DNA from: Deltaproteobacteria bacterium
GTDB taxonomy: Bacteria; Desulfobacterota; BSN033; UBA1163
Direction: 5' to 3'
Assembly (NCBI GenBank): GCA_037444165.1
Contig: JBBIMX010000001.1
Coordinates: 1,026-65,025, forward strand
DNA length: 64,000 nt
Shown piece by piece: positions 19,573 to 60,787 of this stretch; the first letter of the stretch is position 1; each line of letters starts with the position of its first letter. Made by a program: the position numbers and the translations under genes. The notes under the pieces were generated by a model. That model was not told the DNA's origin, searched no databases, and saw only the letters and a list, made by a program, of their open reading frames with translations.

Positions 19573-19595
19573 AAGGAAGGGAGATCGAATTGAAG

Positions 19596-43489: not shown

Positions 43490-44077
43490 TTATCTTAATC
43501 CATCCTCTTTTTTAGCCTCTTCTTTCTTGAGTCCACCGATCCTCGGGTGAGGTCGCCCGGAGTCTGTGACGACAATGGCCACCAAGATCTCATCGGATCG
43601 AGGAGCATCTGGAACTTTCACCGTCATCGCATCAAAATGAGATCTGACAAAAGCGGCATCTTTATAATGGAGAGGAACATCGATTTCTGTGCCTGGGCCA
43701 CCCATCTTTTTGGCTGATGGGATAATCGCTTTTCCACCTCCGACCGCCTCCCTCAGAGGTCCTCCTAATTTCGGATGCAGGATAGCGGCGGCATGTTCCA
43801 GCTCTCCATCCACTCCAACAATGGCTGCCTTCCCGTAACTCTCAGCATTCTTGGGAGAGATGTTTAATGCCTCCACTGCTCTCTTTCCAAGAATCCCTCC
43901 CAATTCCTCACCCATATCGATCAAAGGGGTTAAGTCTTCTACATATTTTCCCGCAAAGGGATTCTTGATCACGGCAATGGCTGCTGCCTTCCGTGTGGGT
44001 GGATCAACCTTCTTTCCTCCCTCGAGATGTGTTTCTTCTACGATCGTCACATATTTTCTTACCTCCATCTTATACAC
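43490..44077 (-). CDS. 'amino acid synthesis' family protein (DUF1185-like)
   Basis: 195 aa; family assignment from recalled sequence pattern (Gly-rich ...VGVDGELEHAAAILHPKLGGPLREA...). Uncertain. Confidence 0.45.
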   Translation of the reverse strand: MYKMEVRKYVTIVEETHLEGGKKVDPPTRKAAAIAVIKNPFAGKYVEDLTPLIDMGEELGGILGKRAVEALNISPKNAESYGKAAIVGVDGELEHAAAILHPKLGGPLREAVGGGKAIIPSAKKMGGPGTEIDVPLHYKDAAFVRSHFDAMTVKVPDAPRSDEILVAIVVTDSGRPHPRIGGLKKEEAKKEDGLR

Positions 44078-44124
44078 CTCCCATCCGTTCGTTTAGAGTA
44101 TAGGACAGAATGCAAAACAAAGAC

Positions 44125-44994
44125 CTATAAAACGGTTAACCAAGAATTCATCGATTCTGTCCATCCCACCTTTCCTTGAACCGAAATGAGGGCTCCTTTA
44201 ATTAAACCCTTTTGGTACAATAGGTCTGCTTTTGATAGGCCCGCTCTTAAGGCCTCTCCAATCTTTTCTTGAGAGAGTTCGCCCACCTCTACGGTAACCC
44301 ACTCTCCCTTAAGATCGGTATCCGGATAGATTTTCTCGGCAGGAAGCCTGAGGATATTGGAATCCTCAATATTGGTAAAGTTCCCAATGGTCGTTGCAGC
44401 CGCATCGGCCAGGGATGCGGTCTCTGCAACGACAGTGGCTGCCTGGGCAATCCCTTTCGTAAAACTTCTTCCTCCCAGTCCACTGGTAGCCACCCCTCCT
44501 ATCTTCATCGTGGAATCAATAGAAAGAAGATAGGCAGGTGTCGGTGCCTCGATCTCTGTCTTTATCCCAACCTTGGCCACTTCATTTTCCCTCAATCGAA
44601 TGGCAATATCCCCACCATTGTCCACGATGATCTTACTCCCCCCTCGAGTAAAAATAAAATCGGCCACCACATCCGAAACCGCCCCGGCGACAGCAGCCAG
44701 AGGGGTTAAATCTGCCTCCCCCATCTTTTGAGTGGCCCCAACCATTCTTTGAACCACCTCAGGGAACCTCTTTCTTCCCTTCAATTCTAAGGATTTCCTT
44801 TTTATCACAGGAAGAAATCTTGCTAAGTCCTTAAGAACTGCGATGGCCAATTGAGCTCCCTCTTTAGCCAATGGGATAAGGGTTCGATCTCCTTCCAATA
44901 CCCGTATCCATATCCGCATCGGGCCGTAATCCACCCAGACACTTCCGTCCGATAAGATTTGAATTGGATCATTTACGGTTTCTTTCCTTTTCAC
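44125..44994 (-). CDS. UPF0280 / ApbE-like family protein
   Basis: 289 aa, Gly/Ala-rich core (GATSGLGGRSFTKGIAQAATVVAETASLADAAATTIG). Co-occurs with the adjacent Hnr-like gene. Confidence 0.45.
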   Translation of the reverse strand: MKRKETVNDPIQILSDGSVWVDYGPMRIWIRVLEGDRTLIPLAKEGAQLAIAVLKDLARFLPVIKRKSLELKGRKRFPEVVQRMVGATQKMGEADLTPLAAVAGAVSDVVADFIFTRGGSKIIVDNGGDIAIRLRENEVAKVGIKTEIEAPTPAYLLSIDSTMKIGGVATSGLGGRSFTKGIAQAATVVAETASLADAAATTIGNFTNIEDSNILRLPAEKIYPDTDLKGEWVTVEVGELSQEKIGEALRAGLSKADLLYQKGLIKGALISVQGKVGWTESMNSWLTVL

Positions 44995-46528
44995 CTTTCT
45001 TCTTTTCCTCTATCTCCTTTAGGACCTCTTCCAATCTTCTTATTTTCTCACGATGGCCTCCCATCTCGATATAGTCATCTAATCTCATCGTATATTCGAG
45101 GGGAACGACCGTAGCCGGGGTGGGAACATAGGTAAAGGCCCTTACCATCACCTTCTCCACATCAACCAAAAAAGTGATTCCCCCACCTGGGAGAATATAA
45201 GTCGGTGCCCCTCCTACAGTTAACCTTGCCCGATTCTGATGGATCGCCTGATTTAATTTCAAAGGAATCTTTGTTACCCCCGCCCTCGCACTTCCACCTG
45301 CCCCTCCAATAAAGACGGCTGAAACTCTTGAGCCCTCGCAGTGAGAAGCGATCATCTCTACTGCAATCTTAGCCTTCGGGGTTAATTCGATCTGTTCAAA
45401 CTTCCCATTTTCCCCAAGGCGAAACATCGCTGCTCTTTCCCCTGTCGTTTCCGTAATCAAGAGAGTCATTCCTAATTGAGCGATCTTCGAATCCACACCT
45501 TCTATAATATCGAGGGGATTCTCAATATTGGTTCCTCCCCAGCCCTTGCCATGTTCTCCAAAATAGCGACCCGGAGTGGATTGCCTTGCCTTCAATTTGA
45601 TGCCGCTATAACGGGCACCCAATTCTCTCCCTGCAGCATGCTCTGTAAAAAGCCCTATAAGATGGGAGTCAAGGACAATCACCTCATCGGCCGCCTCCAA
45701 GAAATATCCTCCAAAAAGACCCATAGAGGCACTTCCACAACCCACCCGCATCTTTGTCCCTATTCTCCCATTGATCACCGGGGGTTTCCCTACTTGAAGA
45801 ATCAACTCCGCTCCTTCTTTGACATTAAGTTTCACCTCTTTCCGATTGGCCATATCCGAGATCAGTTTGGCCACCACAATTCCATCCTGACCGGTGAGAA
45901 GATTCACTCCTCCGAGCGAGAGGATCTTTGAGCCATACTCTTCGGTACAGACGTGCCCTACTTTCCTCTTTCCGATAAGCACAGGGGCCCCTTCCTCCCC
46001 GATATGAATATCGGTATCGATCTTTACCTTAATTCCGCTGTAACTGAGAGGAGCTTCGGTGACCACTGTCACCACATCCACTCCTTCGACTTTGGATTGG
46101 ACAATGTAAGGCGCGGGTTTAGTATCGGGATAAGTCGTCCCTGCGCCGATTCCTGTGATCAGGGGTTTCCGAATAGCCTCCTCATGATCCTTGCCGACAA
46201 TCCCTGAAACATCCTCATAACGTTGAAGAGGAATGTTCCGAATGAGCTCTCCATTCCGATTGATAAATCTTTGGCAGGCCCCAGTATATCCCTCTAAAAT
46301 GAGACACTGAATCGGACAGGAAAAACATCTTACCCTTCTCTCCTTGTGGAGAGAGTCAGAGAGAATGGCCTCTTTTGGGCAGACCTTTGTACAAGCCTTA
46401 CACTCTACACAGGCCTCCGAGATCAAGGCCTTTTTCTTTTTACCTTTTTTAACCAATTGGATGGCTTGAATTGGACAGGTCTCCACACATAAACCACAAC
46501 CCACACAGGTTTCCCAGTCTACAATCAT
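44969..46528 (-). CDS. 6-hydroxynicotinate reductase-like ferredoxin-domain protein
   Basis: N-terminal 2x[4Fe-4S] motifs (CVGCGLCVETCP and CVECKACTKVCP) plus a large C-terminal domain; 519 aa. Confidence 0.5.
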   Translation of the reverse strand: MIVDWETCVGCGLCVETCPIQAIQLVKKGKKKKALISEACVECKACTKVCPKEAILSDSLHKERRVRCFSCPIQCLILEGYTGACQRFINRNGELIRNIPLQRYEDVSGIVGKDHEEAIRKPLITGIGAGTTYPDTKPAPYIVQSKVEGVDVVTVVTEAPLSYSGIKVKIDTDIHIGEEGAPVLIGKRKVGHVCTEEYGSKILSLGGVNLLTGQDGIVVAKLISDMANRKEVKLNVKEGAELILQVGKPPVINGRIGTKMRVGCGSASMGLFGGYFLEAADEVIVLDSHLIGLFTEHAAGRELGARYSGIKLKARQSTPGRYFGEHGKGWGGTNIENPLDIIEGVDSKIAQLGMTLLITETTGERAAMFRLGENGKFEQIELTPKAKIAVEMIASHCEGSRVSAVFIGGAGGSARAGVTKIPLKLNQAIHQNRARLTVGGAPTYILPGGGITFLVDVEKVMVRAFTYVPTPATVVPLEYTMRLDDYIEMGGHREKIRRLEEVLKEIEEKKKGEKERNRK

Positions 46529-46529
46529 T

Positions 46530-47699
46530 TCAAACTCTCTTGGTAAGTGTAATTTTGCGATTGGGTGGTGGAGTGTTTCGACTCACGCCAATCTTCATCT
46601 CCCCATCAATTAATACACCTGCAATCCCGGGGATATCTCCCGCTTCGATAGCCGAGAGGGCATCTTTTCCCACCGATCCCATGGGAGCATCCATGATCAC
46701 AAGATCAGCTTCTCTTCCTACCTCTATCCTTCCCCGATTGAGTCGATAAACCCTCGCTGTATTCCCCGTAGCCATTGCAACGGCCTCTTCTGCCTTTACC
46801 CCGCAAAGGGAGGAAATAAAATTGATCACTCTGAGAATTCCTAAAGGGATGACTCCCGTTCCAGAAGGTGCATCGTTTCCAATAATGACCCTTGAATAGG
46901 CTTTCACTTCTTTTATGATTTTCATGCACTCAACGATCATCTTAGGATTTCCACAATGGACGATCTCGATGGCAAAAGAGGTGCCTCGAATGAGTTTCTC
47001 TGCCTCTCCAATTGGAATGGCAGTGGGACCTCCATTGATATGGGAGACAATATCTGGGTCAGCCGCCATTACATCCGCCGCCGGAACCGTGGTGCTTCCT
47101 GGAATAGAGGTTCCCCCTGTATGCATCATCACAACCATTCCATATTTCTTTGCCCATTTGACCATAGGGGCAGCCTCTCGAGGGGTTTTCACCCCTCCCA
47201 ATCCAATCTCTCCGACCACTCGCACTCCTTCCTTTGCCAATTCCTCAAAATCTTTCTCTTGAAGTCCTGGCTCAAGGATCAGACCTCCTCCAACGACTTT
47301 GACCCCCGCAGGTCTTGCACTGGCAAACGATTTGGCCGCCAGAATGGCCAATGCCTTGGTTCCAGCTACATCCTTGGGTCTTCCCGGGAGGTGAACCTCA
47401 CCAGCAGAGATCATGGTGGTGACCCCTCCATGAAGAGAAGATTCAATATAGTCAAGCATCTTCTGCCGGGGGGTAAAATCTCCAAAAACGGGATGGCAAT
47501 GAGAATCAATAAGCCCTGGAGTCAGGGTCATACCCTGAATATCCAAGACTTGTTCCACCCCTTTCATATCCATCTCCTTTTCTTCTCCAATGGCTTGAAT
47601 CAAACCTCCTTCAATCAGAAGGGCATTGGCTTTCAAAATAGGATTTGAAATATCTCCAGAGACCAGCGTTCCGATATTCTTAATCAATAGGGCTCCCAT
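46530..47699 (-). CDS. amidohydrolase-superfamily protein, enamidase-like
   Basis: GLIDSHCHP metal-binding motif; about 390 aa. Start placed at MGALLIKNIG. Confidence 0.65.
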   Translation of the reverse strand: MGALLIKNIGTLVSGDISNPILKANALLIEGGLIQAIGEEKEMDMKGVEQVLDIQGMTLTPGLIDSHCHPVFGDFTPRQKMLDYIESSLHGGVTTMISAGEVHLPGRPKDVAGTKALAILAAKSFASARPAGVKVVGGGLILEPGLQEKDFEELAKEGVRVVGEIGLGGVKTPREAAPMVKWAKKYGMVVMMHTGGTSIPGSTTVPAADVMAADPDIVSHINGGPTAIPIGEAEKLIRGTSFAIEIVHCGNPKMIVECMKIIKEVKAYSRVIIGNDAPSGTGVIPLGILRVINFISSLCGVKAEEAVAMATGNTARVYRLNRGRIEVGREADLVIMDAPMGSVGKDALSAIEAGDIPGIAGVLIDGEMKIGVSRNTPPPNRKITLTKRV

Positions 47700-47700
47700 T

Positions 47701-49944
47701 TTAATCCTCCTTCTTAGCTTTTTGGACGGCTTCCAGGACCCTCTCCAGATTTGCTGGGAGATGGTAAATCCTCTCTCCAATGGCATCAGCGATTGCATTC
47801 AAAATGGCTGGGGCCGAAGGAATGAGGGCGGGTTCTCCCACCCCTTTGGCCCCAAAAGGACCACTCGGTTCCTGATCTTCCACCAAAATAGGAATCACTT
47901 CGGGAATATCCTTGGAGGTGGGGATAAGATAATTAACGAAAGAGATAGTCCTTCCAGGGTCATACTCCTCCATTAAAGCAAACCCAACCCCCATCGCCAC
48001 TCCTCCGATAATCTGGCCGATTACATTGTTTGGATGAATCGCTCTTCCCACATCGTGGCATGCGATCACCCGAAGGACCTTTACCTTTCCCGTCTCGATA
48101 TCGACCTCCACTTCAGCCAGGTGGGTGGCAAAGGCATAAGTCGCATAAGGGCTCCCCTGTCCTGTTTCTGGATCCAGTCTTGTCGTTTCTGGATCGAAAT
48201 GACCTTCTCCTCTGATGGTCTTCCCAGTTCTCCTCGCAACTTCTTGGATGGGTAAACCCAAGCATAGTTTCTGCCGATGCTTCACCAATCCATCCTCCAC
48301 AAAAAGGTCCTTCTCCTCTTCATTGAGAAGGGAGCTTGCCTCCTGAAGAACCTTTTTCTTAAGGTTCCCTATCGCATTGAGAATGGCATTGCCTGTAATA
48401 TAAGTCTGACGACTTGCAGAGGTTGCGCCTGTATCGGTAGTGAGGAAAGTATCGGCCCTGATGAGTTGAATCTCCTTTAATTCAATCCCTAAAGCTTCGG
48501 AGGCAATCTGAAGAAGAACGGTGTCTGAACCCTGTCCAATATCGGCCACTCCGATATAAAGGATGATTTCTCCTTTTGGAGAAAGTTCTATCTGTGCTGT
48601 GGATGGATTTGCCATCCCAGTATTTCCGATCCCGTACCACATTGAACCAATCCCGATGCCCCTTCGGATAAAGGGTCTTTTTGAATCCAAGGGGGAAGGC
48701 AAAATTTTCCTTCGCCACTCTTCGATCCTCTCTAATGTCTTTCGAATTCCCACACTTGCCCTGAGGACCTGACCCGTCGCTGTCTCACTCCCAATTTGAA
48801 GGGCATTGATTTTTCTTATTTCTAAGGGATCCATCTTTAAGGCTTGAGCCAAAAGATCCATCTGGGACTCATGGGCAAAAGCGATCTGGGGTACTCCGAA
48901 TCCTCTCATCGCCCCCGACCATGGGTTATTGGTGTAAGCCATTCGGCTTCTGACCTTCACATGGGGGACTTGATAGGGACCAGTCGCATGAACTGCTGCC
49001 CTGATGGCAACGGTTGTCCCATAGGAGGCATAAGCCCCCGTATCCCCTAAAATATCCACCTCCACGGCAGTGAGTCTTCCATCCTTTCTTGCTCCACTCC
49101 GATAATGAATCTTCAAGGGATGTCGTTTAGAGATCACCTGAAAGACTTCTTCTCGAGTATATACCATTTTGACAGGTCTTTTTAGGTGAAAAGCGGCCAA
49201 GGCTAAAAAACATTGAATTGTGATATCGAGCCTTCCTCCAAAGGCACCCCCTGTGGTGGACTGAATGATCCTTACCCTCTCGAAGGGCAAGTTAAGAAAG
49301 GAGGCCACCTCCCTCTGATCGTAATGCACATTCTGGGTGGGACAGATGATCACCAGTCTCTCCTCTTCATCCCAATACGCCACCCCTCCATCGGGTTCTA
49401 AATAGGCATGATCAACCCAGGTCGTTGTATAAGTGTTTTCTATGATGACTTCTGCCTCTTTGAATCCAACCTGGATATCCCCCTTGACGAGATTAAACTC
49501 TACAAGCAAATTTCCCTTTTCATGGATAGGAGGAGCGAATGGCTGAAGCGCTTCCTCGGGAGTCTTTATGGAAGGAAGTTCCTCATAGGTCACCTTTATT
49601 TTCTGAGAGGCCTCTTCCGTAGCTTCGACTGTTTCTCCCGCAACAAGGGCGATGGGATCCCCCACATACCTTACGCGATCTAAAGCGAGGACAGGCTGGT
49701 CCTTCTGGATGATTCCAATCCGATTCCTTCCAGGGATGTCCTTTGCGGTAAAGATTCTTTCGACCCCTTTAACCTGGAGGGCTTCTTCTAATTCGACTTT
49801 TACTATCTTAGCATGGGGTTTATCACTTCGAACAACTTTGAGATAAAGGGGATTGGGGATGCAGTAATCCCCTCCATATCGTGAAGCTCCTAATACTTTA
49901 TCCAGAGCATCTAACTTTAAGACATTTACTCCAATCTTCTTCAT
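47701..49944 (-). CDS. xanthine dehydrogenase-family molybdopterin-binding large subunit
   Basis: 747 aa with aldehyde oxidase/xanthine dehydrogenase a/b hammerhead and MoCo-binding domains. Confidence 0.85.
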   Translation of the reverse strand: MKKIGVNVLKLDALDKVLGASRYGGDYCIPNPLYLKVVRSDKPHAKIVKVELEEALQVKGVERIFTAKDIPGRNRIGIIQKDQPVLALDRVRYVGDPIALVAGETVEATEEASQKIKVTYEELPSIKTPEEALQPFAPPIHEKGNLLVEFNLVKGDIQVGFKEAEVIIENTYTTTWVDHAYLEPDGGVAYWDEEERLVIICPTQNVHYDQREVASFLNLPFERVRIIQSTTGGAFGGRLDITIQCFLALAAFHLKRPVKMVYTREEVFQVISKRHPLKIHYRSGARKDGRLTAVEVDILGDTGAYASYGTTVAIRAAVHATGPYQVPHVKVRSRMAYTNNPWSGAMRGFGVPQIAFAHESQMDLLAQALKMDPLEIRKINALQIGSETATGQVLRASVGIRKTLERIEEWRRKILPSPLDSKRPFIRRGIGIGSMWYGIGNTGMANPSTAQIELSPKGEIILYIGVADIGQGSDTVLLQIASEALGIELKEIQLIRADTFLTTDTGATSASRQTYITGNAILNAIGNLKKKVLQEASSLLNEEEKDLFVEDGLVKHRQKLCLGLPIQEVARRTGKTIRGEGHFDPETTRLDPETGQGSPYATYAFATHLAEVEVDIETGKVKVLRVIACHDVGRAIHPNNVIGQIIGGVAMGVGFALMEEYDPGRTISFVNYLIPTSKDIPEVIPILVEDQEPSGPFGAKGVGEPALIPSAPAILNAIADAIGERIYHLPANLERVLEAVQKAKKED

Positions 49945-50804
49945 TGGAGATTCTCAAAGGCCTGCTGAATTGCTCTCATTACCAGGGCCTTTACTACAGG
50001 TGATTTATAAGAAGTGGAGGGGCGAACTCCACTTCGTAAAACCATCTCTGAAGAAGTCTTTTCAGAGGCCACTCTTAACCGTTCAAGATCAAAGGGCTGA
50101 TCCTCTAAGAAAGATTCTGCTTCCTTCATTCTTTGAGGAGTAGGAGTGATTGCTCCTACCGAGATTCTAACCTGTTTCATCCTAATTCCCTCTCTTTGAA
50201 GCAAGACAGCGATACTCATTCTGGCTATAGCCATCCCATCTCGCCTGGCCAATCGGATAAAAGATCCTTTCATATGTGGATGGAGTTTCTTAAACGAGAT
50301 GGAAACTAAAATCTCATGGGGAAGCAGGGTGCTCCGATAAGGGCCTTGGATAAGGGACTCAATAGGGACCTCTTTCTCTCCTTCTTTGGATACGACTTTC
50401 CCCATCGCCTCCAATACCATCAGAGGAGGAAGTGTATCTGCCGCAGGGGAGGCATTAACAACATTCCCTCCAATCGTTCCAGTATTTCTGATCTGGGGAG
50501 ATCCTATCTGGGAGGCTGCCTCTGAGAGTATTTTCCCATAGGTGTTTATGATAGGGGAGACGGCAATTTCGGAATGGGTGACTGCCCCTCCAATAGAAAT
50601 GGCCCCATCTTTCTCCTCTATTTTTCTAAGTTCCGCAATACGGGTAATATCAATAAGAAACTCAGGCCTGAGGAGTCCATTTCGAAGAGCAATGATCAGA
50701 TCCGTTCCCCCTGCGATCACCTTTGCCTTCTCTCTGTAATCCCACAAAAGATCGCAGGCCTCTTTGAGGTTTTTCGGAATTTTATACTGAAATGGAGGGA
50801 TCAT
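49941..50804 (-). CDS. molybdenum hydroxylase FAD-binding subunit (CoxM/XdhB-like)
   Basis: 287 aa with VIAGGTDL FAD-binding motif; translationally coupled to its neighbours. Confidence 0.8.
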   Translation of the reverse strand: MIPPFQYKIPKNLKEACDLLWDYREKAKVIAGGTDLIIALRNGLLRPEFLIDITRIAELRKIEEKDGAISIGGAVTHSEIAVSPIINTYGKILSEAASQIGSPQIRNTGTIGGNVVNASPAADTLPPLMVLEAMGKVVSKEGEKEVPIESLIQGPYRSTLLPHEILVSISFKKLHPHMKGSFIRLARRDGMAIARMSIAVLLQREGIRMKQVRISVGAITPTPQRMKEAESFLEDQPFDLERLRVASEKTSSEMVLRSGVRPSTSYKSPVVKALVMRAIQQAFENLQ

Positions 50805-51254
50805 CTATTTTCCAACCGCTTCAATTGCTTCCATGATCTGCTGGTATCCTGTACAACGACAAAGATTCCCTGAAATAGCCTCTTTTATCTCTTCTCGAGT
50901 TGGCTTCGGGTTTTTCTCCAATAAGGCTTTCGCAGACATTAACATTCCCGGGGTACAGAATCCACACTGAACAGCCCCATGCTCAATAAAAGACCTCTGT
51001 AAAGGATGAAGAGATTCCCTGCTTCCGAGTCCTTCCACTGTCTCAACCCGCCTTCCTTCAACTTTGGGGACTAAAATGAGACAGGAGTTAACGGCCAATC
51101 CATCCAGCAAGACCGTGCAGGCACCGCATTCGCCAATCCCACAGCCCTCTTTGGTGCCTGTCAATCCGAGTTTTTCTCTAAGGAGGCGAAGAAGGGTCCA
51201 GTGAGGAGGAACCTCTACCTCGATCTCTTTTCCATTAAGAACGAATCGAATCAT
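50805..51254 (-). CDS. molybdenum hydroxylase [2Fe-2S] small subunit
   Basis: 149 aa with CGIGECGACTV and CGFCTPG motifs. Confidence 0.85.
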   Translation of the reverse strand: MIRFVLNGKEIEVEVPPHWTLLRLLREKLGLTGTKEGCGIGECGACTVLLDGLAVNSCLILVPKVEGRRVETVEGLGSRESLHPLQRSFIEHGAVQCGFCTPGMLMSAKALLEKNPKPTREEIKEAISGNLCRCTGYQQIMEAIEAVGK

Positions 51255-52739
51255 CTAAACCCACCTTGCCACAACGGTCTTTTCATCCATAAACATTCTC
51301 ATGGAGGCCATTCGAGATTTGGCTGTTCCCACAAAAGATTCTCTTCTTGACCCGAGGGGAAAGAAAGCATAGGGTTGGGCCACCCCCACATTTACCCCTA
51401 CGTTCCCCACATTGACCTCTCGAATGAATTTTCTTGCATTCCTTCCGTCCCTGGTCATGATACAGGCTGTATGACCCAGGTTCGTTTTCGAGTTAATCCA
51501 CTCGATGGCCTGATCAAGGCTCTCGCCTCGAATCAAAGCAGCAACAGGACCAAAGGCCTCCTCCTTGGCCATAGACATGTCAACATTGACATCTTCAAGA
51601 ATGGTTGGGCCCAGAAAATAACCTTTCGGATAATCCTTTACTATTACACCTCTTCCATCAAGAACCATCTTTGCTCCTTCCGATAGCGATGTCTCGATCC
51701 AATTGAGCACTTTCTCCTTTCCCGCCTGAGTCGTCATCGGCCCCAATTCTGTTTCCGTATCCAGTCCGTATCCCAATTTCATCCTTGAAGCCGCCTCTTT
51801 GAAACGTCTTTTCACTTCATCATAAATGGGGCCAATGATGACAACATTGTCGACCCCCAGGCATCGTTGCCCTGACATCCCAAAGCATCCCCTGAGGAGC
51901 CATTGAATCCCTTGATCAAGATCGGCATCAGGCATGATCACCACATGGTTCTTCCCATTCCCATTGATAGAAGAAGTCTTCTTGAGTTTTCCGCAAATAT
52001 CAAAAAGTTCATGTCCAGCTCGATTCGAACCAATAAAGCCGACTCCCTTGACCTCGGGTTGAGAAAGGATCTCCTTATTAATCGTCCTTCCTCCATGAAT
52101 GAGATTTAGAACTCCTGGAGGAAATCCTGCTTCCTGGGCCACTTTAGTAATCGCTTCGGAGGCAACCGGGCATTGCCTGCTCGGACTGATGACCATGGTG
52201 CAACCCGCAGCTAACCCGTAAGGAACAAAAGAGGACCAGGCATGCATGGGAATATTACCAGGTGTAATGATTAGGAACACGCCCAAGGGTTCCCAAATGA
52301 GATATTGATCGATTCCATCTGCCACCTGATCCATATGTTCATTCCTCTTGGCCAACCCATAAAGAGCAGAACAGGCGGATTCAATATTTTCAATCACCCT
52401 TCGGACAGATCCTCTGGCCTCATCAATCGTTCTTCCATGATCCTGAACAAGAATTCGGGAGAGCTCCTCAAAATGTTCTTCAAACTTTGCCCTCATATCA
52501 AATAGGAGGCGGGCTCGATCCCTAAGGGGAACCTCCCTCCATTCCTTGAAGGCCTTGTGGGCCGCTTCTACAGCCATTCTTGCCTCTTCCTTCGTCGCCT
52601 CTGGAAATTCTGAAATGACTTCATCAGTAGCAGGATTGGTATTGGTGTGGATGAGGGTTGATTTCGATTCTATCCATTCTCCGTTGATTAAAAATCTTTG
52701 CTTGCCATAATGTTTTTTTACTTCGGACAGTAGGGCCAT
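51255..52739 (-). CDS. aldehyde dehydrogenase, CoA-acylating methylmalonate-semialdehyde dehydrogenase-like
   Basis: 494-aa ALDH with an MmsA-like N-terminus (FLINGEWIESKST...NPATDEVI) and a catalytic Cys region. Confidence 0.7.
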   Translation of the reverse strand: MALLSEVKKHYGKQRFLINGEWIESKSTLIHTNTNPATDEVISEFPEATKEEARMAVEAAHKAFKEWREVPLRDRARLLFDMRAKFEEHFEELSRILVQDHGRTIDEARGSVRRVIENIESACSALYGLAKRNEHMDQVADGIDQYLIWEPLGVFLIITPGNIPMHAWSSFVPYGLAAGCTMVISPSRQCPVASEAITKVAQEAGFPPGVLNLIHGGRTINKEILSQPEVKGVGFIGSNRAGHELFDICGKLKKTSSINGNGKNHVVIMPDADLDQGIQWLLRGCFGMSGQRCLGVDNVVIIGPIYDEVKRRFKEAASRMKLGYGLDTETELGPMTTQAGKEKVLNWIETSLSEGAKMVLDGRGVIVKDYPKGYFLGPTILEDVNVDMSMAKEEAFGPVAALIRGESLDQAIEWINSKTNLGHTACIMTRDGRNARKFIREVNVGNVGVNVGVAQPYAFFPLGSRRESFVGTAKSRMASMRMFMDEKTVVARWV

Positions 52740-52759
52740 CTCTCCTCCTTCTCTTTGAT

Positions 52760-54067
52760 TTACCTTCCCATCATGCTGGGTAAAAAAAGGGCTATTTTAG
52801 GAAAAATCGTGATCAGGACTACTACCACAATCATCGAAAAAAGGAAAGGCATCGCTCCCCGGAAGATCGTCTCCATGGGAACATCCTTCACGACTCCAGC
52901 AAGGGTGTATACATTTAATCCCACAGGAGGGGTAATCAATCCTGCCTCCATCATGATCACACAGATCACTCCGAACCAAATGGGATCAAAGCCAAGCGTC
53001 TTAATCACCGGGAAAATGACAGGCATGGTCAGAACCATCATGGAAATAGCATCTAAAAAGCAACCCATAAATAGATAAATCAGCACGATGATGGAAAGGA
53101 TGAAATATCGAGAAACCTCAAGACTCGCCATCCAGTTTGAGACAGCCATCGGAATGGTTGAGAGGGCAAGAAAGTAACTAAAAACATTGGCTCCGGCTAC
53201 CAAAAAGAGGACAAGGACAGAAATTCGAGTGGCCTCCAATAAAGAGGTCGTAAGAGTTTTTAGAGTCAATTTTCCCTTTAAAAGAATGATTATAAAAAGG
53301 GCGGTTGCCCCGATTGCTCCTGCTTCCGTAGGATTGATAAAGCCAAGATATATCCCTCCCATGACAATGAGAAATACCAGAAGGGTCTCCCATATTCCGG
53401 AAAGGGCAAGAATCTTTTCCTTCAAACTGATCTCCCCAGAAGTGGCGGGGGCTAAATGAGGGTTAAGTTTGACTTGGATTACAATGATGAGAATAAAAGC
53501 CAAAGAAAGAAGGGCTCCTGGAAAGATACCCGAGATTAAGAGTTTTCCGATAGACTGTTCGGTCAGCATCCCATAGACCACAAACCCTAAAGAGGGGGGA
53601 ATGAGAAAGCTAAGGGTTCCTCCTGCAGCGACCACTCCGACTGCCAATTTGGGATCGTAGCGAAATCGTCTCATCTCCGGAATGGCGATTGTTCCCATGG
53701 CTGCAGAGGCGGCTACAGAAGAACCACTGAGGGCTGCAAAGAAGGCACAGGCAGCAATGGTTGCAATCCCTAATCCGCCAGGCCATTTTCGAAACCACTT
53801 ATCGAAGGATTCATAGAGTTCACGGGTAATCCCTGCACCCCCTGCAAATCCGCCCATCAGGATGAAGAGAGGGATGATGGTATAAGGATAATGGGAGGCG
53901 GTTTCATAAAGGGTCTTGGCCACAACGGGCAGGGCAGCATGGATGGAGGTTAAATAACTGATGCCTAAAAACCCCACAAACATCATGACAAAGGCAATGG
54001 GCATTCCAAGAAAGAGCAAGAAGACCAACACCCCACTGCCAATGATTCCAATCGTAATTGGACTCAC
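52760..54067 (-). CDS. dctM: TRAP transporter large permease
   Basis: 435-aa polytopic DctM-family protein. Confidence 0.85.
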   Translation of the reverse strand: MSPITIGIIGSGVLVFLLFLGMPIAFVMMFVGFLGISYLTSIHAALPVVAKTLYETASHYPYTIIPLFILMGGFAGGAGITRELYESFDKWFRKWPGGLGIATIAACAFFAALSGSSVAASAAMGTIAIPEMRRFRYDPKLAVGVVAAGGTLSFLIPPSLGFVVYGMLTEQSIGKLLISGIFPGALLSLAFILIIVIQVKLNPHLAPATSGEISLKEKILALSGIWETLLVFLIVMGGIYLGFINPTEAGAIGATALFIIILLKGKLTLKTLTTSLLEATRISVLVLFLVAGANVFSYFLALSTIPMAVSNWMASLEVSRYFILSIIVLIYLFMGCFLDAISMMVLTMPVIFPVIKTLGFDPIWFGVICVIMMEAGLITPPVGLNVYTLAGVVKDVPMETIFRGAMPFLFSMIVVVVLITIFPKIALFLPSMMGR

Positions 54068-54552
54068 TTTTCGTCCCTTTTCAGCTTTTTTATAAAATCG
54101 ATTAGATCCATCATCAGTTCGAGCCAGAGCAGAAAGCCCCCAATGGCTACAAGGAGTCGAAAAGGAGATTGAGGAATTCTCAACATGTCTGAGACCGTTC
54201 GTTCTCTAATTCCCTCAACCCATCCCTGCCAGACGAGAATGGTGATAATAAAGAGACTGAGGAGCGTGGTCATAATCCTGCAAAGGGTTCGAACTCGGGG
54301 AGATAACCGATTAATAATAAAATCCACTCCTACATGCCCTTTCACCTGTTGGGTATAAGCAGCCCCTAAAAGAATAAACACCGCTAACATATATTCGGAT
54401 AATTCGAAGGTCCCAGGGATGGTTTTGGAAAGAAATTTTCTCCCCAAAACATCCCCTGTAGTTAACAACATCAATGGAAGGAGAAGAAACATCCCGGCCA
54501 TACACACACATAAATTGAATCGCTGGATCAGTTTCCTCATCTTTACAGTCAA
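54064..54552 (-). CDS. dctQ: TRAP transporter small permease
   Basis: 162 aa with four TM helices; 4-nt overlap with dctM. Confidence 0.8.
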   Translation of the reverse strand: MTVKMRKLIQRFNLCVCMAGMFLLLPLMLLTTGDVLGRKFLSKTIPGTFELSEYMLAVFILLGAAYTQQVKGHVGVDFIINRLSPRVRTLCRIMTTLLSLFIITILVWQGWVEGIRERTVSDMLRIPQSPFRLLVAIGGFLLWLELMMDLIDFIKKLKRDEK

Positions 54553-54634
54553 TTCACTTTAGGGTGAGTAAAATTTCACAATTAAACCCAAATTGAAGGG
54601 GCGATTCATGTCGCCCCTCCTTTGGTGATAAATT

Positions 54635-55705
54635 CTATTTCGCCCATTCCTTTGGAAAAGCAACCACCTTCACACCCCTCTTCTCGCATTCTTGGTTGAA
54701 CATCTTGACGGTCTCTTTTGCAGGAAGCCCTTTACTTTCCAAACCGGCTACCCATTTCCTTGTCTCCTCTCTGAACCCTTCATACCATCTTTCTGCTTCC
54801 TCTGCTGGAAGGGTGTAAAGATTGACCCCTTTATCCGCAATTTCTTTCATCATTACCTTATAGACCTCTCGAGTCAGTCCTCCTGTTGTTCTAAAAGGAT
54901 TACGTCCTAACGATTCTATAATTGCCTTATGTTCCTCAGGCAACTTTTTCCAGCTCTCCATATTCATCACTACGCCCTCGGTCACACATCCAAATGTAGC
55001 AATCACCCCATGTTTCACGACCTCCTGGAGCTTAAAACTCAGAAGGATAGGAGGACATGTTACAAGGCCATCTATGGTCCCTGTCTCCATAGCCAGATAG
55101 ACATCTCCCAGAGGCATGAAAATAGGCTCTGCACCTAATGATTTGATATAATTGGTTTGATGTCCTCCTGGAGTTCTTATCTTCAGTCCTTTAGTATCTG
55201 CTAATGAACGGATGGGTTTTTTTGTCCACAAAAAGGATTGGATGCAACCGTTCAATTCGATCATTTTCACATCTTTGAATTCTCTATGGAGCATTCTTTC
55301 GTACATCGCGTTACCGATATCCACAGCGAGGTCTTTTCCGTCCACCCAGGCGGCCAATGAGAGAACATCCGAAAGAGGAAAACGTCCCGGCGTCCAGGTG
55401 GCGGTGAAGTATCCCATGTCTGAAAGTCCTTTGGCTACAATATCAAAGTGTTCAGGCCCTTTTCCTAAGGCTGCACCTGCATACATCGTGTATGAAATTT
55501 TTCCACCACTTTTCTTCTTCATCTCCTCAAGCATGGGCTCCCAAACCGTCTTTACCTCTCGACCCGCAGGTGCATGCCAGGTGCTAAAACGGATATGGGT
55601 GGTCTGGGCAAAGGAGAGTTCATAAATACCACCCCCCAATCCTAAAGCCATACCTCCAATAATCGATCCCTTTAAAAAATTCCTTCTCGTTAGTCCCTCA
55701 CACAT
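54635..55705 (-). CDS. dctP: TRAP transporter substrate-binding protein with Tat signal
   Basis: RRNFLKGSIIGGMALGL twin-arginine signal plus a DctP-family fold. Confidence 0.8.
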   Translation of the reverse strand: MCEGLTRRNFLKGSIIGGMALGLGGGIYELSFAQTTHIRFSTWHAPAGREVKTVWEPMLEEMKKKSGGKISYTMYAGAALGKGPEHFDIVAKGLSDMGYFTATWTPGRFPLSDVLSLAAWVDGKDLAVDIGNAMYERMLHREFKDVKMIELNGCIQSFLWTKKPIRSLADTKGLKIRTPGGHQTNYIKSLGAEPIFMPLGDVYLAMETGTIDGLVTCPPILLSFKLQEVVKHGVIATFGCVTEGVVMNMESWKKLPEEHKAIIESLGRNPFRTTGGLTREVYKVMMKEIADKGVNLYTLPAEEAERWYEGFREETRKWVAGLESKGLPAKETVKMFNQECEKRGVKVVAFPKEWAK

Positions 55706-55867
55706 TTTTTATTCCTCCTTTCTTTTTCTCTCGATGGGTGAGAGAATAGAATGTTGAATAAGAATAGACCATCTTTTTTAAAATATTCGATTTTCAAAAA
55801 ATTTTCAACAAAATTTTGCCCTAAATGGGTAATCCCTCACTGAAGGTTAAGATTTTGCCTTTTTATA

Positions 55868-56587
55868 TCATCTTGCCAGGGTGAGTAACTTTATTCCCTT
55901 AATCTCTTTGAATGTAGCCCCTTCACTGATAGATCGAATGACTCGGTCTGTGTCAATTACTTTTGAGCCACAGATGGCATTTATCCCATGGTCAAACAGA
56001 ACAGGAGATAGAGGGGATGTGGGGCCAATCAAAACAACGAAAGCCTTTCTACAGAGAGCAAGAAGATCCTCCAAGGTATGATTGATAAAGGCCGTCCCTG
56101 TAATTCCTACCACCTCACACTGAGGCAATATTCGGTCTGCCTCACTTGCAGGTAAGTCCCCTGCCCGCACTCTCTGTTCAAGAACCCATAAGTCTTTTAT
56201 TCTTTCCCTTAATTTCATAATCCATGGAAAGTGGCCCACAATCGCCACCTTCTTTCCCTCTCCCTTTTCGAGAATAATCTCAAAAGCATTTTTCTCCACA
56301 CACGATGATTCCTCAATATCGATTAATGAATTGATCGTGGCCATCCCTATGGAAGCCTCCAACAAATGGTCCGACTTAGCATATTCGGCTAATTCTAATG
56401 CCATCTTTTGAGTAAGGCGCCCAACATCCCTCACACCTCGATCATGGGGAATCCCTTCATCCCTGAAAGTCGAGGAAAGACCACAGTGTTTACTCACTAC
56501 GGCAGTCCAAAAGACACAGGTATGGACGGACTTAACTGGAACCTCATTTCCTTTAAGGCTCATCAGGAGGTCATCAAGTATTTTCAT
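55868..56587 (-). CDS. DUF364/DUF4213 Rossmann-like protein (putative metal/cofactor-handling)
   Basis: 239 aa; family call by pattern. This family typically neighbours molybdoenzyme genes. Confidence 0.45.
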   Translation of the reverse strand: MKILDDLLMSLKGNEVPVKSVHTCVFWTAVVSKHCGLSSTFRDEGIPHDRGVRDVGRLTQKMALELAEYAKSDHLLEASIGMATINSLIDIEESSCVEKNAFEIILEKGEGKKVAIVGHFPWIMKLRERIKDLWVLEQRVRAGDLPASEADRILPQCEVVGITGTAFINHTLEDLLALCRKAFVVLIGPTSPLSPVLFDHGINAICGSKVIDTDRVIRSISEGATFKEIKGIKLLTLAR

Positions 56588-56692
56588 TCCATCACCTCGA
56601 TAATAATCTCACGGCAATCATCTACACCCATTTTTTACCATGAGATTCACTCATGGTTTTGATGGATGCTCCCAATAGCGAGAAAATTTTTC

Positions 56693-57127
56693 TCAACCTT
56701 CGATGAGTTGAATCGGATCCCCGATTTTTACTTCCCCGCTTTCTATAACCTTACAAAAAATACCCTCTTTAGGTAAGATAGAATATCCCTGATAATAGTA
56801 GGTGTGGGCTTTGGAGGGATCCTTTCCAATCTGAATGACTTCGAGCTTTGCCTCACCCACCTTCAAACGGGTACCTACGGGAAGATGGGTTAACTCCATT
56901 CCTTCAGTGGTGATATTCTCTGCAAAACACCCAGGCCCTGCCGAAATGGCCTTCTCTTTACAAAGCCTCTGGATACTCTCAATAGCAAGAAGGCTTACCT
57001 CCTTCTCTGTCCCGGCGTGAGAATCACCCACTAATCCAACCCCTTTTTGGAGAAGACCTCGCCCAACATTCCTCTTTGGTTCAGTTCGTTTTTGACTCAG
57101 GCAGACACCGATGACCTTTCCTTCCAT
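56693..57127 (-). CDS. MOSC domain-containing protein
   Basis: 144 aa with GLVGDSHAG and a conserved Cys, a typical MOSC beta-barrel pattern. Confidence 0.65.
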   Translation of the reverse strand: MEGKVIGVCLSQKRTEPKRNVGRGLLQKGVGLVGDSHAGTEKEVSLLAIESIQRLCKEKAISAGPGCFAENITTEGMELTHLPVGTRLKVGEAKLEVIQIGKDPSKAHTYYYQGYSILPKEGIFCKVIESGEVKIGDPIQLIEG

Positions 57128-57159
57128 AAAGTCTCCTTAGATCGGTTAAAAAAGGAAGG

Positions 57160-57936
57160 TTATTTTCCTTTCCATTGAGGCTTTCGTTTTTCTATGAAGG
57201 CTTTAACTCCCTCATGGGCATCTTCAGTGGTGCATAACCTGGCCATGATTTCCCGGTGAAGCGCGAACTTCTGTTGAAATGGAAGATCGATCATTTCGTA
57301 GTAGAATTGTTTTCCCATCCGGAGGGCCAGAGGGCTTTTAGAGATGAGTTTTTTAGCAAACACAAGAGTTTCTTCTTCCAGCATTTCAGGGGGGACCACT
57401 CTATTCACTAACCCCAAACGTTCTGCTTCTTTGGCATCGATCATCTCTCCACTTAAAAGCATCTCCAAGGTTTTTTTCTTACCGATACCATAGCTCATGG
57501 GAATGAGAGGCCCCGTACAGAGCAATCCAACGTTGATCGCGGTGGTCCCAAGTTTGGCATCCTCTGCCATGATGGCAAAATCCGCAGCGGCCACCAATCC
57601 GGCACCATTAGCCACTGCATATCCGTGGACCATGGCGATCACAGGTTTTACCATCGAGGCGATAGTCAGGTGCATCTGATCCATGAGGGCAAGCCATTGA
57701 GGATATTCAGAAGGGGCTATCTCCAGAAACTCATTCACATCGATTCCCGTTGAAAAAACTTTACCTGCTCCCTTAATGATCACGACCCGGACTTCGATCT
57801 CCTCATCCAATTGTTTTAAAGCGAGATGAAGTTCTTCAGCCATTTGGCTGTTAAAGGTATTGAACTTTTGTGGACGATTGAGGGTAATGATACCGATTTG
57901 GTCTCTCTTTTCGATTAGAATTGTTTTAAAAGGCAT
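57160..57936 (-). CDS. enoyl-CoA hydratase/isomerase (crotonase) family protein
   Basis: 258 aa with a crotonase fold and oxyanion-hole region. Confidence 0.8.
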   Translation of the reverse strand: MPFKTILIEKRDQIGIITLNRPQKFNTFNSQMAEELHLALKQLDEEIEVRVVIIKGAGKVFSTGIDVNEFLEIAPSEYPQWLALMDQMHLTIASMVKPVIAMVHGYAVANGAGLVAAADFAIMAEDAKLGTTAINVGLLCTGPLIPMSYGIGKKKTLEMLLSGEMIDAKEAERLGLVNRVVPPEMLEEETLVFAKKLISKSPLALRMGKQFYYEMIDLPFQQKFALHREIMARLCTTEDAHEGVKAFIEKRKPQWKGK

Positions 57937-57952
57937 AACCCTTCTCCTTTTT

Positions 57953-58876
57953 TTATTTATTAAAAATTGGAACAGTGGCGGTCCCTCGAAGCACTTTTTC
58001 TCCCCGTTGATTCTTAACTAGGATGTCCAATATTAAAGAAACTTCTTTTTCTTTGGTTTTCCTTTCTTTGACTTGTATTCGGGTTCGCGCCGTATCTCCG
58101 GGTCTTAAGGGATGAAGAAATTGAATGTCCATTTCACCATGGTGGACCCATTCCCAAGGGAAAACGGCCATCAATGATTCAGAAATATAAGCCACACTCA
58201 TTAACCCATGGGCAATGATCCCTCCAAAAGGGGTGGATCTTGCATATTCCTCATCCACATGGATTGGATTTCCAATTCCCAGGATTTCTTCATACTGTTT
58301 AATTTTCTCTATGGTGATTCTCTTTATCAAAGAGGGAAGGGAATCACCGATTTTCCATTCTTGAGTGGGTGAAATGGAACTATGGGTGATTGGGAGGGGT
58401 TGACTTTTAAATGGTGACATCTTTGAGGTTTGACTCTTTTTAACTTCCTTTTCTAAATTTTTCCATACCGAAGTGGATTCGCTCCATACCACAAGTTCTC
58501 CGCGTTGATTCCTGCTGTGGCTAGTGAAAGTGAGGAACCAATCCCCCGCTTTCTTTACTTTTTGAGTAAGCTCCGCTTGAATCGTGATCTGGTCTCCTGG
58601 GTACATGGGTCCATAAAATCTGAATTTTTGTTGGAGATGGATTCCTCCAGGCGAAGGATTCCAATCAGTTCGATAGGCCTTCAAAATAAATAAACTTGCA
58701 ATAGTAGGAGGGGCGATGATTCCCCCAAAAGGACCGGAGGAGGCTTTTGATGAATCTCTATGAAAGAAATTGAAGTCCTCCACCACATTTACATATTTAA
58801 AAATTATCTCTTCGGAAATAGAATATAAGAGAGGCGAGAAGCGACGACCCACAGGGATCTGTTTAAAAAAGTCCAA
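57953..58876 (-). CDS. MaoC-like (R)-specific enoyl-CoA hydratase/dehydratase, double hot-dog
   Basis: 307 aa with two MaoC-like halves. Confidence 0.7.
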   Translation of the reverse strand: MDFFKQIPVGRRFSPLLYSISEEIIFKYVNVVEDFNFFHRDSSKASSGPFGGIIAPPTIASLFILKAYRTDWNPSPGGIHLQQKFRFYGPMYPGDQITIQAELTQKVKKAGDWFLTFTSHSRNQRGELVVWSESTSVWKNLEKEVKKSQTSKMSPFKSQPLPITHSSISPTQEWKIGDSLPSLIKRITIEKIKQYEEILGIGNPIHVDEEYARSTPFGGIIAHGLMSVAYISESLMAVFPWEWVHHGEMDIQFLHPLRPGDTARTRIQVKERKTKEKEVSLILDILVKNQRGEKVLRGTATVPIFNK

Positions 58877-59291: not shown

Positions 59292-59299
59292 CCTTTTTC

Positions 59300-60690: not shown

Positions 60691-60747
60691 TATTCCACTC
60701 CTTCCCTTTAAACTCGATGATTATTCAAACCCAACTTATTGAGTTAA

Positions 60748-60787
60748 CTTCCCATGACCGCTTTGTCACCCACAAACGATAAAAATC
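60748..60787. repeat. roughly 40-nt dispersed repeat, copy 2
   Basis: cttcccatgaccgctttgtcacccacaaacgataaaaatc; lies in the prx-CoADR intergenic region, 58 nt upstream of the CoADR-like start. Confidence 0.5.

Follow-up and report, generated by a model that had tools for sequence, protein, structure and literature searches.

How might an uncultured bacterium of the Thermodesulfobacteriota break down nicotinate anaerobically, and which genes would it use? Nicotinate is a ubiquitous vitamin (B3) and an N-heterocycle, and, as far as we know, its anaerobic breakdown has been characterised at the gene level mainly in one Firmicute. The bacterium, of the sulfate-reducer type, is represented by a metagenome-assembled genome and is assigned to its phylum through the names of its cluster mates, metagenome-assembled genomes of Thermodesulfobacteriota. 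The stretch of DNA analysed here, 64 kb long and referred to below as the window, carries on its minus strand, at positions 43490-57127, 13 open reading frames (ORFs) arranged head to tail. These encode, in order of transcription, a MOSC protein, a DUF364/DUF4213 protein, DctP, DctQ, DctM, an aldehyde dehydrogenase (ALDH), the 2Fe-2S, FAD and molybdenum subunits of a hydroxylase, an amidohydrolase, a protein with a 2x[4Fe-4S] domain, a UPF0280 protein and a DUF1185/AA_synth protein. An earlier interpretation of this region, called here the sequence-only reading, had described these co-oriented genes as a nicotinate-type catabolic island paralleling that of Eubacterium barkeri. Both the gene inventory, recovered in full with Pfam and NCBIfam, and the parallel itself have held, with identities of 59% for enamidase (Ena) and 48% for 6-hydroxynicotinate reductase (Hnr), and with the NdhL and NdhM subunits of E. 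barkeri nicotinate dehydrogenase (Ndh) as the best relatives of the molybdenum subunit. The real unit consists of 11 genes, dctPQM-aldh-ndhS-ndhF-ndhLM-ena-hnr-UPF0280-DUF1185, at 43490-55705. It is read here, with a probability of about 0.7, as an operon for degrading nicotinate anaerobically by way of 1,4,5,6-tetrahydro-6-oxonicotinate (THON), from which an ALDH branch would lead to glutaryl-CoA.

The locus of E. barkeri VPI 5359 (L001) was retrieved with the 2VUN sequence, and all its ORFs were compared with the window by tblastn. The cluster of this organism contains ndhFSLM, hnr, orfC, ena, the gene for Q0QLE8, hgd, hmd, mgm, mii, dmdAB and dml (Alhapel et al. 2006), and its matches in the window are confined to Hnr, OrfC, NdhFSLM, Ena and DUF1185. 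The comparison, already suggested in the sequence-only reading, yields orthologues of NdhS, NdhF, NdhL, NdhM, Hnr, Ena and the products of two uncharacterised genes, OrfC and Q0QLE8, with identities of 30-60%. In the case of Ena, the second-best match in PDB reaches only 1e-06. The start of its gene is most likely the ATG at 47699 (MGALLIKNIG...), 1 nt past the stop codon of ndhLM, which predicts a protein of 389 aa, rather than that of an overlapping 422-aa ORF (46530-47798).

The ferredoxin-domain protein encoded next to Ena, which had been likened to Hnr, aligns from end to end with the characterised enzyme, since the E. barkeri ORF concerned, L001:1827-3326, is by sequence look-up exactly the Swiss-Prot entry HNR_EUBBA. 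As in E. barkeri, its ferredoxin domain (2x[4Fe-4S]) is N-terminal, and to this are added another four-cysteine site and a core of ~430 aa. Across Firmicutes and Thermodesulfobacteriota, 14 cysteines (8/11/14/18, 40/43/46/50, 68/71/75/85, 264 and 397) are invariant, those at 68, 71, 75 and 85 constituting the further CxxCxxxC...C site, and the same holds for several histidines. The enzyme of E. barkeri reportedly contains, according to Alhapel and colleagues in 2006, two [4Fe-4S] clusters and one [2Fe-2S] cluster besides a flavin that is bound covalently. The core belongs to no Pfam family, and sequence and profile searches of PDB match the ferredoxin domain only. An AlphaFold2 prediction based on 42 sequences of 75-96% identity (pLDDT 56.7) was discarded; once Firmicutes homologues were added to the alignment, a model with pLDDT 85.2 and pTM 0.81 was obtained, for which a Foldseek search of PDB gave no match at E <= 1e-3, the ferredoxin domain alone being aligned. 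A first search with Hnr gave more than 4,400 proteins at E <= 0.001, matches to the ferredoxin domain only being counted among them, and the best 120 are all at least 75% identical to the protein of the window. The family defined by the core is small, with 739 clusters (50% identity) at E <= 1e-3 and 118 at E <= 1e-30, many of them fragments, and the near-full-length matches among those listed are all at least 40% identical. Homologues in deltaproteobacterial metagenome-assembled genomes (MAGs) are already automatically annotated as '6-hydroxynicotinate reductase'.

The way in which electrons enter this reductase varies. In the anaerobes the input is the ferredoxin domain, whereas the homologues on proteobacterial plasmids lack it and are encoded beside a ferredoxin-NADP reductase. 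In two other proteins of ~970-980 aa (P0181 and P0186) the Hnr core is fused to a Fer4_20 + Pyr_redox_2 module, which in our reading is GltD/NfnB-like, so that in these proteins the reductase would have its own link to NAD(P)H and be self-sufficient. Such a set of input modules is consistent with one reductase core being fed by different donors.

With respect to the hydroxylase, the three subunits described in the sequence-only reading stand, with the refinement that the large subunit is a single polypeptide in which NdhL (50-51% identity) and NdhM (45-46%), split in E. barkeri, are fused, as they are in several other Firmicutes loci. The best PDB matches of this subunit are NdhL for its N-terminal half (3HRD_A, 454 bits) and NdhM for its C-terminal half (3HRD_B, 274 bits). 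Lower in the ranking come 4-hydroxybenzoyl-CoA reductase (359 bits), the CO dehydrogenases (at most 216 bits), the aldehyde oxidoreductases and the xanthine dehydrogenases, so that membership of the CO dehydrogenase or 4-hydroxybenzoyl-CoA reductase groups, which would have spoken against a nicotinate-type enzyme, is not what these scores indicate. The active-site loop reads AMRGFG, at residue 345, and resembles its E. barkeri counterpart AFRGFG (PMC8305194), and Glu704, in the sequence GVGEPAL, aligns with Glu289 of NdhM. When the three subunits are compared with NCBIfam, the top models are pucD/XdhA/XdhB/XdhC and 4-hydroxybenzoyl-CoA reductase, all of them scoring under their curated equivalog cutoffs (pucD, 579 against 784; 4hydrxCoA_A, 512 against 995; 4hydrxCoA_B, 115 against 405), and no nicotinate dehydrogenase model is among the NCBIfam matches. 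E. barkeri Ndh is a selenium-dependent enzyme, with a labile selenium ligand on the molybdenum; selD, yqeB and yqeC were not identified among the scanned ORFs of the window.

The module formed by Ndh, Hnr, UPF0280, Ena and DUF1185 is shared by E. barkeri and some 20 further loci, and this association of genes is far beyond chance. The novelty of the cassette was overstated in the sequence-only reading, as the E. barkeri cluster already contains it. The more than 20 loci belong to Firmicutes (at least 15), Thermodesulfobacteriota and Proteobacteria (on plasmids), with Firmicutes hosts such as E. aggregans, Acetobacterium bakii, Anaerotruncus colihominis and Pseudoflavonifractor capillosus, and four more lineages of Thermodesulfobacteriota/Deltaproteobacteria have the module in the same gene order. 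The exact gene order of the window, from dctPQM to DUF1185, is repeated in L020 (a Deltaproteobacteria MAG) and L026, and L027-L029 (Thermodesulfobacteriota) keep the same order but without UPF0280; L027 and L028 have a LivKHMGF-type ABC system in place of the TRAP transporter, and L029 begins inside the cluster. The proteobacterial clusters retain hnr-UPF0280-DUF1185, but they differ from the window in that the ring would be opened by HyuA/HyuB instead of enamidase, a NicAB-type hydroxylase may be present (in Neorhizobium) and DUF1185 is duplicated, and the 12 kb to each side of hnr contain no MMSDH-type (methylmalonate-semialdehyde dehydrogenase) ALDH. These gene contents suggest, for the aerobic version of the pathway, a different, ATP-dependent ring opening. 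The clusters on plasmids of the Alphaproteobacteria Sagittula stellata (L110) and Neorhizobium (L111) include a ferredoxin-NADP reductase and a MarR regulator together with the HyuA/HyuB and paired DUF1185 genes, and that of Sagittula additionally encodes the alpha subunit of a Rieske dioxygenase. Among the loci examined, the variant with TRAP transporter and MMSDH-type ALDH appears confined to Thermodesulfobacteriota.

Based on these genes, the following sequence of reactions can be proposed. Nicotinate would be imported by DctQM and a binding protein exported through the twin-arginine translocation (Tat) system, and then hydroxylated at C6 by NdhS, NdhF and the fused NdhLM, orthologues of the E. 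barkeri subunits, leading to 6-hydroxynicotinate. Hnr, orthologous to the purified E. barkeri enzyme, would reduce the ring to THON with electrons of reduced ferredoxin, transferred through its 2x[4Fe-4S] domain and Cys4 cluster, and UPF0280 and DUF1185 would be accessory to this reductive step. The enamidase, an orthologue of the crystallised enzyme, would later open the ring, releasing NH3 and (S)-2-formylglutarate. That an upper pathway of this THON type acts on nicotinate or 6-hydroxynicotinate seems to us very probable. From this point the route would depart from that of E. barkeri: the MMSDH-type ALDH would transform 2-formylglutarate into glutaryl-CoA, with formation of CO2 and NADH, and glutaryl-CoA would be processed by the usual route of glutaryl-CoA dehydrogenase and β-oxidation, whose genes are not in the window.

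As for the first of these steps, the TRAP transporter is complete, with DctP, DctQ and DctM mutually adjacent and all well over the Pfam threshold. The N-terminus of DctP (MCEGLTRRNFLK) contains the twin-arginine motif TRRNFLK, and its gene has the same position in L020, L026 and L030-31. Judging from this context, DctP is presumed to be the nicotinate-binding subunit. Across the loci, the transporter slot is occupied either by a TRAP or by a LivKHMGF-type ABC system, the latter having been called a 'putative nicotinate ABC transporter' in proteobacterial clusters (PMC3511419).

Table 1. Position of the nicotinate genes, of adjoining genes and of predicted signals in the window.
Feature	Position	Strand	Evidence and remarks
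MOSC	56693-57127	minus	Pfam
DUF364/DUF4213	55868-56587	minus	Pfam
Promoter-like site TTGAAA-17-TATTTT	55780..55808	minus	Consensus scan; consensus match only; surrounding region not richer in such sites than shuffled sequence
dctP, TRAP substrate-binding protein	54635..55705	minus	Pfam DctP 1.6e-37; NCBIfam TRAP_S1
Strong hairpin, 10 pairs, 7 G-C	54595..54620	minus	Terminator-like scan; directly past dctP, ahead of dctQ
dctQ, TRAP small membrane subunit	54064..54552	minus	Pfam DctQ 2.2e-28
dctM, TRAP large membrane subunit	52760..54067	minus	Pfam DctM 2.7e-99
aldh, ALDH of MMSDH type	51255..52739	minus	Best NCBIfam model TIGR01722 (MMSDH); proposed 2-formylglutarate dehydrogenase
ndhS, 2x[2Fe-2S] subunit	50805..51254	minus	Pfam Fer2, Fer2_2; 52% identity to E. 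barkeri NdhS
ndhF, FAD subunit	49941..50804	minus	Pfam FAD_binding_5, CO_deh_flav_C; 30% identity to E. barkeri NdhF
ndhLM, molybdopterin subunit, 747 aa	47701..49944	minus	3HRD_A 6.8e-135, 3HRD_B 3.4e-80
ena, enamidase	46530..47699	minus	PDB 2VUN 4.1e-141, 59% identity over 381 aa
hnr, 6-hydroxynicotinate reductase	44969..46528	minus	48% identity over ~497 of 499 aa to L001:1827-3326
UPF0280/ApbE-like	44125..44994	minus	36% identity to E. barkeri OrfC (Q0QLF6); NCBIfam PRK04334; GTG start uncertain
DUF1185/AA_synth	43490..44077	minus	Pfam AA_synth 7.2e-78; PDB 2QTP 2e-79; start codon uncertain

A different downstream route, by way of a CoA-acylating aldehyde dehydrogenase, had also been foreseen in the sequence-only reading, and the gene content agrees with it. 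E. barkeri, a fermenting Firmicute, produces propionate and pyruvate through a B12-dependent lower pathway (hgd, hmd, mgm, mii, dmd and dml), of which no homologue was detected by tblastn in the 64-kb window, including those of the 614-aa mutase and the 381-aa isomerase, although such genes could lie outside it. The hgd, mgm, mii, dmd and dml genes are equally absent from L020 and L026-L028, and in these four loci, as in the window, an MMSDH-type ALDH is encoded directly upstream of ndhS. Conversely, 13 Firmicutes loci have hgd and no MMSDH-type ALDH. The reference for Hgd, L001:4171-5076, was identified as 2-(hydroxymethyl)glutarate dehydrogenase by exact-sequence look-up.

MMSDH is the best NCBIfam family for the ALDH of the window by more than 100 bits, and its top PDB matches are all (methyl)malonate-semialdehyde dehydrogenases (MSDHs), such as 1T90 (1.6e-92, ~34% identity) and 5TJR. 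Another MMSDH-type ALDH, 39-40% identical to that of the window, takes its place in L020, L027 and L028, and those of L020 (472.3 bits) and L027 (460.9 bits) pass the TIGR01722 cutoff. When the ALDH of the window, 1T90 and four syntenic ALDHs were aligned with MAFFT, all six were seen to keep the equivalents of Arg124, Asn169 and Arg301-Cys302, and to have L, N or Q in place of the general base Glu268 (ALDH2 numbering), positions whose roles we take to be those assigned to them in work on the Bacillus subtilis MSDH. Thus, the enzyme of the window shares with B. subtilis IolA/MSDH (1T90) and human ALDH6A1 its best family, the Cys preceded by Arg, the equivalents of Arg124 and Asn169 and the lack of Glu268, and it differs from MSDH in scoring below the curated cutoff and in a genomic context that suggests 2-formylglutarate, a larger 2-substituted malonate semialdehyde, as the substrate. 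The known substrates of MMSDH are malonate and methylmalonate semialdehyde, and 2-formylglutarate differs from methylmalonate semialdehyde in that a carboxyethyl group replaces the methyl. Since two divergent members of the subfamily have been recruited to one position, it would be the chemistry (oxidation, β-decarboxylation and CoA transfer) that matters there. Taking into account the family signature, the chemistry and the synteny, the conversion of 2-formylglutarate into glutaryl-CoA and CO2 by this ALDH is favoured, at somewhat better than even odds. No description of a 2-formylglutarate dehydrogenase activity of this kind was found in the literature searched.

The proposed route has a precedent in its chemistry. 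Azorhizobium caulinodans is reported, in a scheme of Kitts and colleagues (1992; see also Kitts et al. 1989), to degrade nicotinate through THON, 2-formylglutarate, loss of CO2, glutarate and glutaryl-CoA. The route of Azorhizobium/Bradyrhizobiaceae would therefore coincide with that of the window in THON, in the hydrolytic ring opening, in the release of the former carboxyl carbon as CO2 and in a C5 dicarboxylate that ends as glutaryl-CoA; the window would reach glutaryl-CoA in one step, whereas Azorhizobium would require free glutarate and a CoA transferase. The clusters of this group have been described, with the Azorhizobium route summarised as 'via glutarate' (PMC3511419).

It has to be considered that the ALDH may not be a 2-formylglutarate enzyme at all. 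It could be an ordinary (methyl)malonate-semialdehyde dehydrogenase placed there by chance, or act on glutarate semialdehyde after a spontaneous or enzymatic decarboxylation occurring elsewhere, perhaps due to DUF1185, a protein to which no role is assigned. This would suit an enzyme whose best family uses malonate and methylmalonate semialdehyde, and also the Azorhizobium scheme, which keeps decarboxylation apart from oxidation. However, chance co-location is unlikely, because in five lineages or more the place upstream of ndhS is taken by one or other of two divergent MMSDH-type genes, and these clusters contain no other consumer of 2-formylglutarate. Moreover, the Arg124/Arg301 pair, given the roles that we presume for these residues, fits a carboxylate next to the aldehyde carbon, which is present in 2-formylglutarate and not in glutarate semialdehyde. 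All in all, a function other than that of 2-formylglutarate dehydrogenase is considered unlikely.

A further doubt concerns the substrate of the whole pathway, since the same enzymes might serve physiologically for a different pyridine or N-heterocyclic carboxylate, for example another hydroxypyridine carboxylate or a pyridone derived from the breakdown of alkaloids or cofactors, which would undergo hydroxylation, partial reduction and hydrolysis in an analogous way. The hydroxylase exceeding no NCBIfam equivalog cutoff, and the company that the hnr-UPF0280-DUF1185 triad keeps elsewhere (hydantoinase/oxoprolinase A/B and, in Sagittula, the Rieske dioxygenase alpha subunit), leave room for such a substrate. 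Against it stand the closest characterised relatives of all three steps, which are the nicotinate enzymes of E. barkeri, with 46-59% identity across phyla, an enamidase with no other close PDB relative, the small and tight family of the Hnr core (118 clusters at E <= 1e-30) and the nicotinate phosphoribosyltransferase gene found beside the cluster both in the window and in L027. Another physiological substrate is thus thought improbable, and nicotinate or 6-hydroxynicotinate is retained here. Finally, the possibility of a purine/xanthine or 4-hydroxybenzoyl-CoA cluster, with a xanthine dehydrogenase or 4-hydroxybenzoyl-CoA reductase as the molybdenum enzyme and a purine/pyrimidine-type ring hydrolase as the amidohydrolase, is suggested by the names of the top NCBIfam models, but it is effectively refuted by their scores below the curated cutoffs, by E. 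barkeri Ndh being clearly first in PDB and by flanking genes that are Ena and Hnr orthologues and not purine or benzoyl-CoA genes.

The two remaining genes of the operon, encoding UPF0280 and DUF1185, belong to families whose contribution has to be deduced from their company. Their triad with hnr persists while the hydroxylase, the ring-opening enzyme and the transporter change, which ties both of them to the reduction step. OrfC of E. barkeri (Q0QLF6) bears in RefSeq the name FAD:protein FMN transferase. The UPF0280 protein of the window remains below the gathering threshold of Pfam ApbE (PF02424), with 20.0 against 25.6 bits; nevertheless, 14 out of 14 UPF0280 orthologues match this family at E <= 0.1 (best 4e-7), and that of L026 is recorded with PF27030 AbpE_bact. 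A profile comparison with Vibrio cholerae ApbE (6NXJ), weak at E = 1e-3, aligns NNGGDIA with EIGGEIR and AADALAT with TADGLAT, and the GGD/GGE and ADxLAT elements are presumably the catalytic and metal-binding motifs of ApbE. With respect to ApbE/Ftp, these motifs appear to be common and the profile matches are weak but consistent, and UPF0280 is shorter, with ~290 aa; on reading of its translation neither a signal sequence nor a lipoprotein signal is seen, so that it is presumably cytoplasmic. This likeness to ApbE, together with the covalent flavin reported for E. barkeri Hnr, makes the idea of a flavin transferase, advanced in the sequence-only reading, a reasonable one, and we give about even chances to UPF0280 installing the covalent flavin of Hnr.

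The DUF1185 protein is 60% identical to E. barkeri Q0QLE8. Its gene adjoins hnr or ena in 22 loci, with two copies in the proteobacterial clusters, and DUF1185 is predicted to be an obligate companion of Hnr. The solved structures of this family have a chorismate-mutase-like fold (PMC2954203), from which it could be speculated that the protein is a RidA-like enamine/imine deaminase acting on the ring-opened enamine. Literature on UPF0280, DUF1185, 2-formylglutarate and MSDH active-site residues was searched, and no assignment of these functions was found. A joint proposal, in which an MMSDH-derived enzyme would work as a decarboxylating, CoA-acylating 2-formylglutarate dehydrogenase and the formation or the operation of active Hnr would depend on UPF0280 and DUF1185, in a hybrid pathway not described at the gene level, is put forward only tentatively, as something that may well turn out to be wrong.

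Several observations weigh against the interpretation of the operon defended here. The ALDH of the window, with 394.7 bits, falls below the TIGR01722 cutoff of 448.5, and neither glutaryl-CoA dehydrogenase nor glutaconyl-CoA decarboxylase was found in the 64 kb. ApbE/Ftp acceptors are flavinylated at a Dxx[ST]GA[ST] motif, and Hnr lacks the canonical [ST]GA[ST], the nearest element being the invariant G128-A-G-T131-x-Y-P; UPF0280 itself is missing from three otherwise matching clusters (L027-L029). The triad alone does not fix the substrate, because in Proteobacteria it accompanies HyuAB and a Rieske oxygenase. Lastly, no regulator gene was found in the operon.

Regarding its limits, from dctP through DUF1185 the genes are separated by short gaps, or overlap (dctQ/dctM and hnr/UPF0280), and a gap of 162 nt, which includes a promoter-like site, separates DUF364 from dctP. 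This site is the probable start of the operon. The hairpin behind dctP could possibly be an attenuator or stabiliser fixing the DctP:DctQM ratio, with more binding protein than membrane subunits. A scan of the whole window with Rfam revealed no riboswitch and no other RNA family, and when the sequences preceding dctP in four loci were aligned, no convincing common operator emerged. The 3' end of the operon faces three convergent genes of the plus strand (EamA, DUF2784 and an M42 peptidase), which, together with the nicotinate phosphoribosyltransferase gene, keep their 3'-side synteny in related loci. This last gene, of the pncB type (39638-40816, minus strand; NF006415, 528 bits, cutoff 243), had been placed upstream in the sequence-only reading; it lies beyond the 3' end, past the three convergent genes. 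It is found a few kb past the operon both in the window and in L027 (20887 onward), and nicotinate salvage and catabolism may thus be genomically associated in this lineage.

The sequence-only reading also included MOSC, DUF364, crotonase and MaoC genes in the island, as downstream members. On the coding strand they are upstream of dctP, and their linkage to the nicotinate genes is confined to this species. DUF364 homologues were retrieved in 80 metagenome loci; the test covered the 34 whose sequence extends 2.5 kb or more downstream of them, and nicotinate genes (dctP, aldh, ndh) followed DUF364 in three, all at least 90% identical and therefore of the same species. The other 31 (77-82% identity) have genes for MBL-fold Tat, peroxiredoxin, Pyr_redox, MOSC, DUF364, crotonase and MaoC proteins, and no nicotinate genes downstream, so that MOSC, DUF364, crotonase and MaoC are neighbours and not parts of the operon. 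With this co-occurrence test, a function of MOSC and DUF364 in molybdenum cofactor maturation for the hydroxylase was rejected, as was that of crotonase and MaoC in the continuation from glutaryl-CoA/crotonyl-CoA, these two travelling with DUF364 and not with the nicotinate genes.

The neighbouring genes form a block of their own (55868-62840, minus strand), which recurs in many sediment metagenome contigs (L033-L109, with many of the loci coming from freshwater sediment) with variable content and order, independently of the nicotinate operon. It comprises a Tat-signal MBL-fold protein, a probable selenocysteine-containing peroxiredoxin, an oxidoreductase of the same type, a small ferredoxin, MOSC, a second MBL-like gene, DUF364, crotonase, MaoC and an ORF of 142 aa. 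This ORF (58863-59291, minus strand) overlaps the start of MaoC and has no Pfam or NCBIfam match, and homologues with 55-64% identity lie beside DUF364 in L033, L053, L054, L060 and L082. The peroxiredoxin gene (60864-61586, minus strand) appears as two ORFs because of one in-frame TGA (61325-61323), located exactly at the peroxidatic cysteine and with a hairpin predicted just downstream, and most likely encodes a selenocysteine peroxiredoxin. The adjacent pyridine-nucleotide disulfide oxidoreductase (59300-60691, minus strand), which the ORF list gives in a truncated 402-aa version starting at TTG, has an in-frame TGA (60556-60554) in its N-terminal sequence FISYGS*ETPYY, at what we take to be the expected redox-active Cys of NADH-oxidase/CoA-disulfide-reductase-like enzymes, and is probably a second selenoprotein. 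Since two genes have in-frame TGA codons most likely decoded as selenocysteine, the synthesis of selenophosphate is likely in this organism. In a distant part of the window (9219-20498, minus strand) there is a heterodisulfide-reductase/Flox-like cluster with a 1003-aa HdrA-like polyferredoxin flavoprotein, MvhD (FlpD), two CCG-domain HdrB-like proteins and further HdrA-like and ferredoxin ORFs; between 12 and 16 kb, the GC content is unusually high (0.51-0.52) and the GC skew extremely negative (-0.43 to -0.48).

In sum, what the genes of this operon describe is, as far as can be read from their sequences, the known THON route of nicotinate degradation in a variant form, in which a TRAP importer and an enzyme of the MMSDH type accompany upper enzymes of the E. 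barkeri type. The operon is neither an artefact nor a surprise, and current understanding is not overturned by it. The comparison suggests that Thermodesulfobacteriota of anoxic sediments share with E. barkeri the three opening reactions of the pathway. The recruited MMSDH-type enzyme, routing carbon to glutaryl-CoA, would be, if this is true, a new enzyme activity, and the complete anaerobic oxidation of nicotinate would then be possible in Thermodesulfobacteriota. UPF0280 and DUF1185, long-standing families of 'unknown function', are found to travel with Hnr across three phyla, and Hnr stands out for having no solved structural relative detectable by PDB sequence, profile or Foldseek searches. 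From all this, three predictions are derived: a 2-formylglutarate dehydrogenase activity, a UPF0280-dependent flavinylation of Hnr and an obligate partnership between Hnr and DUF1185.

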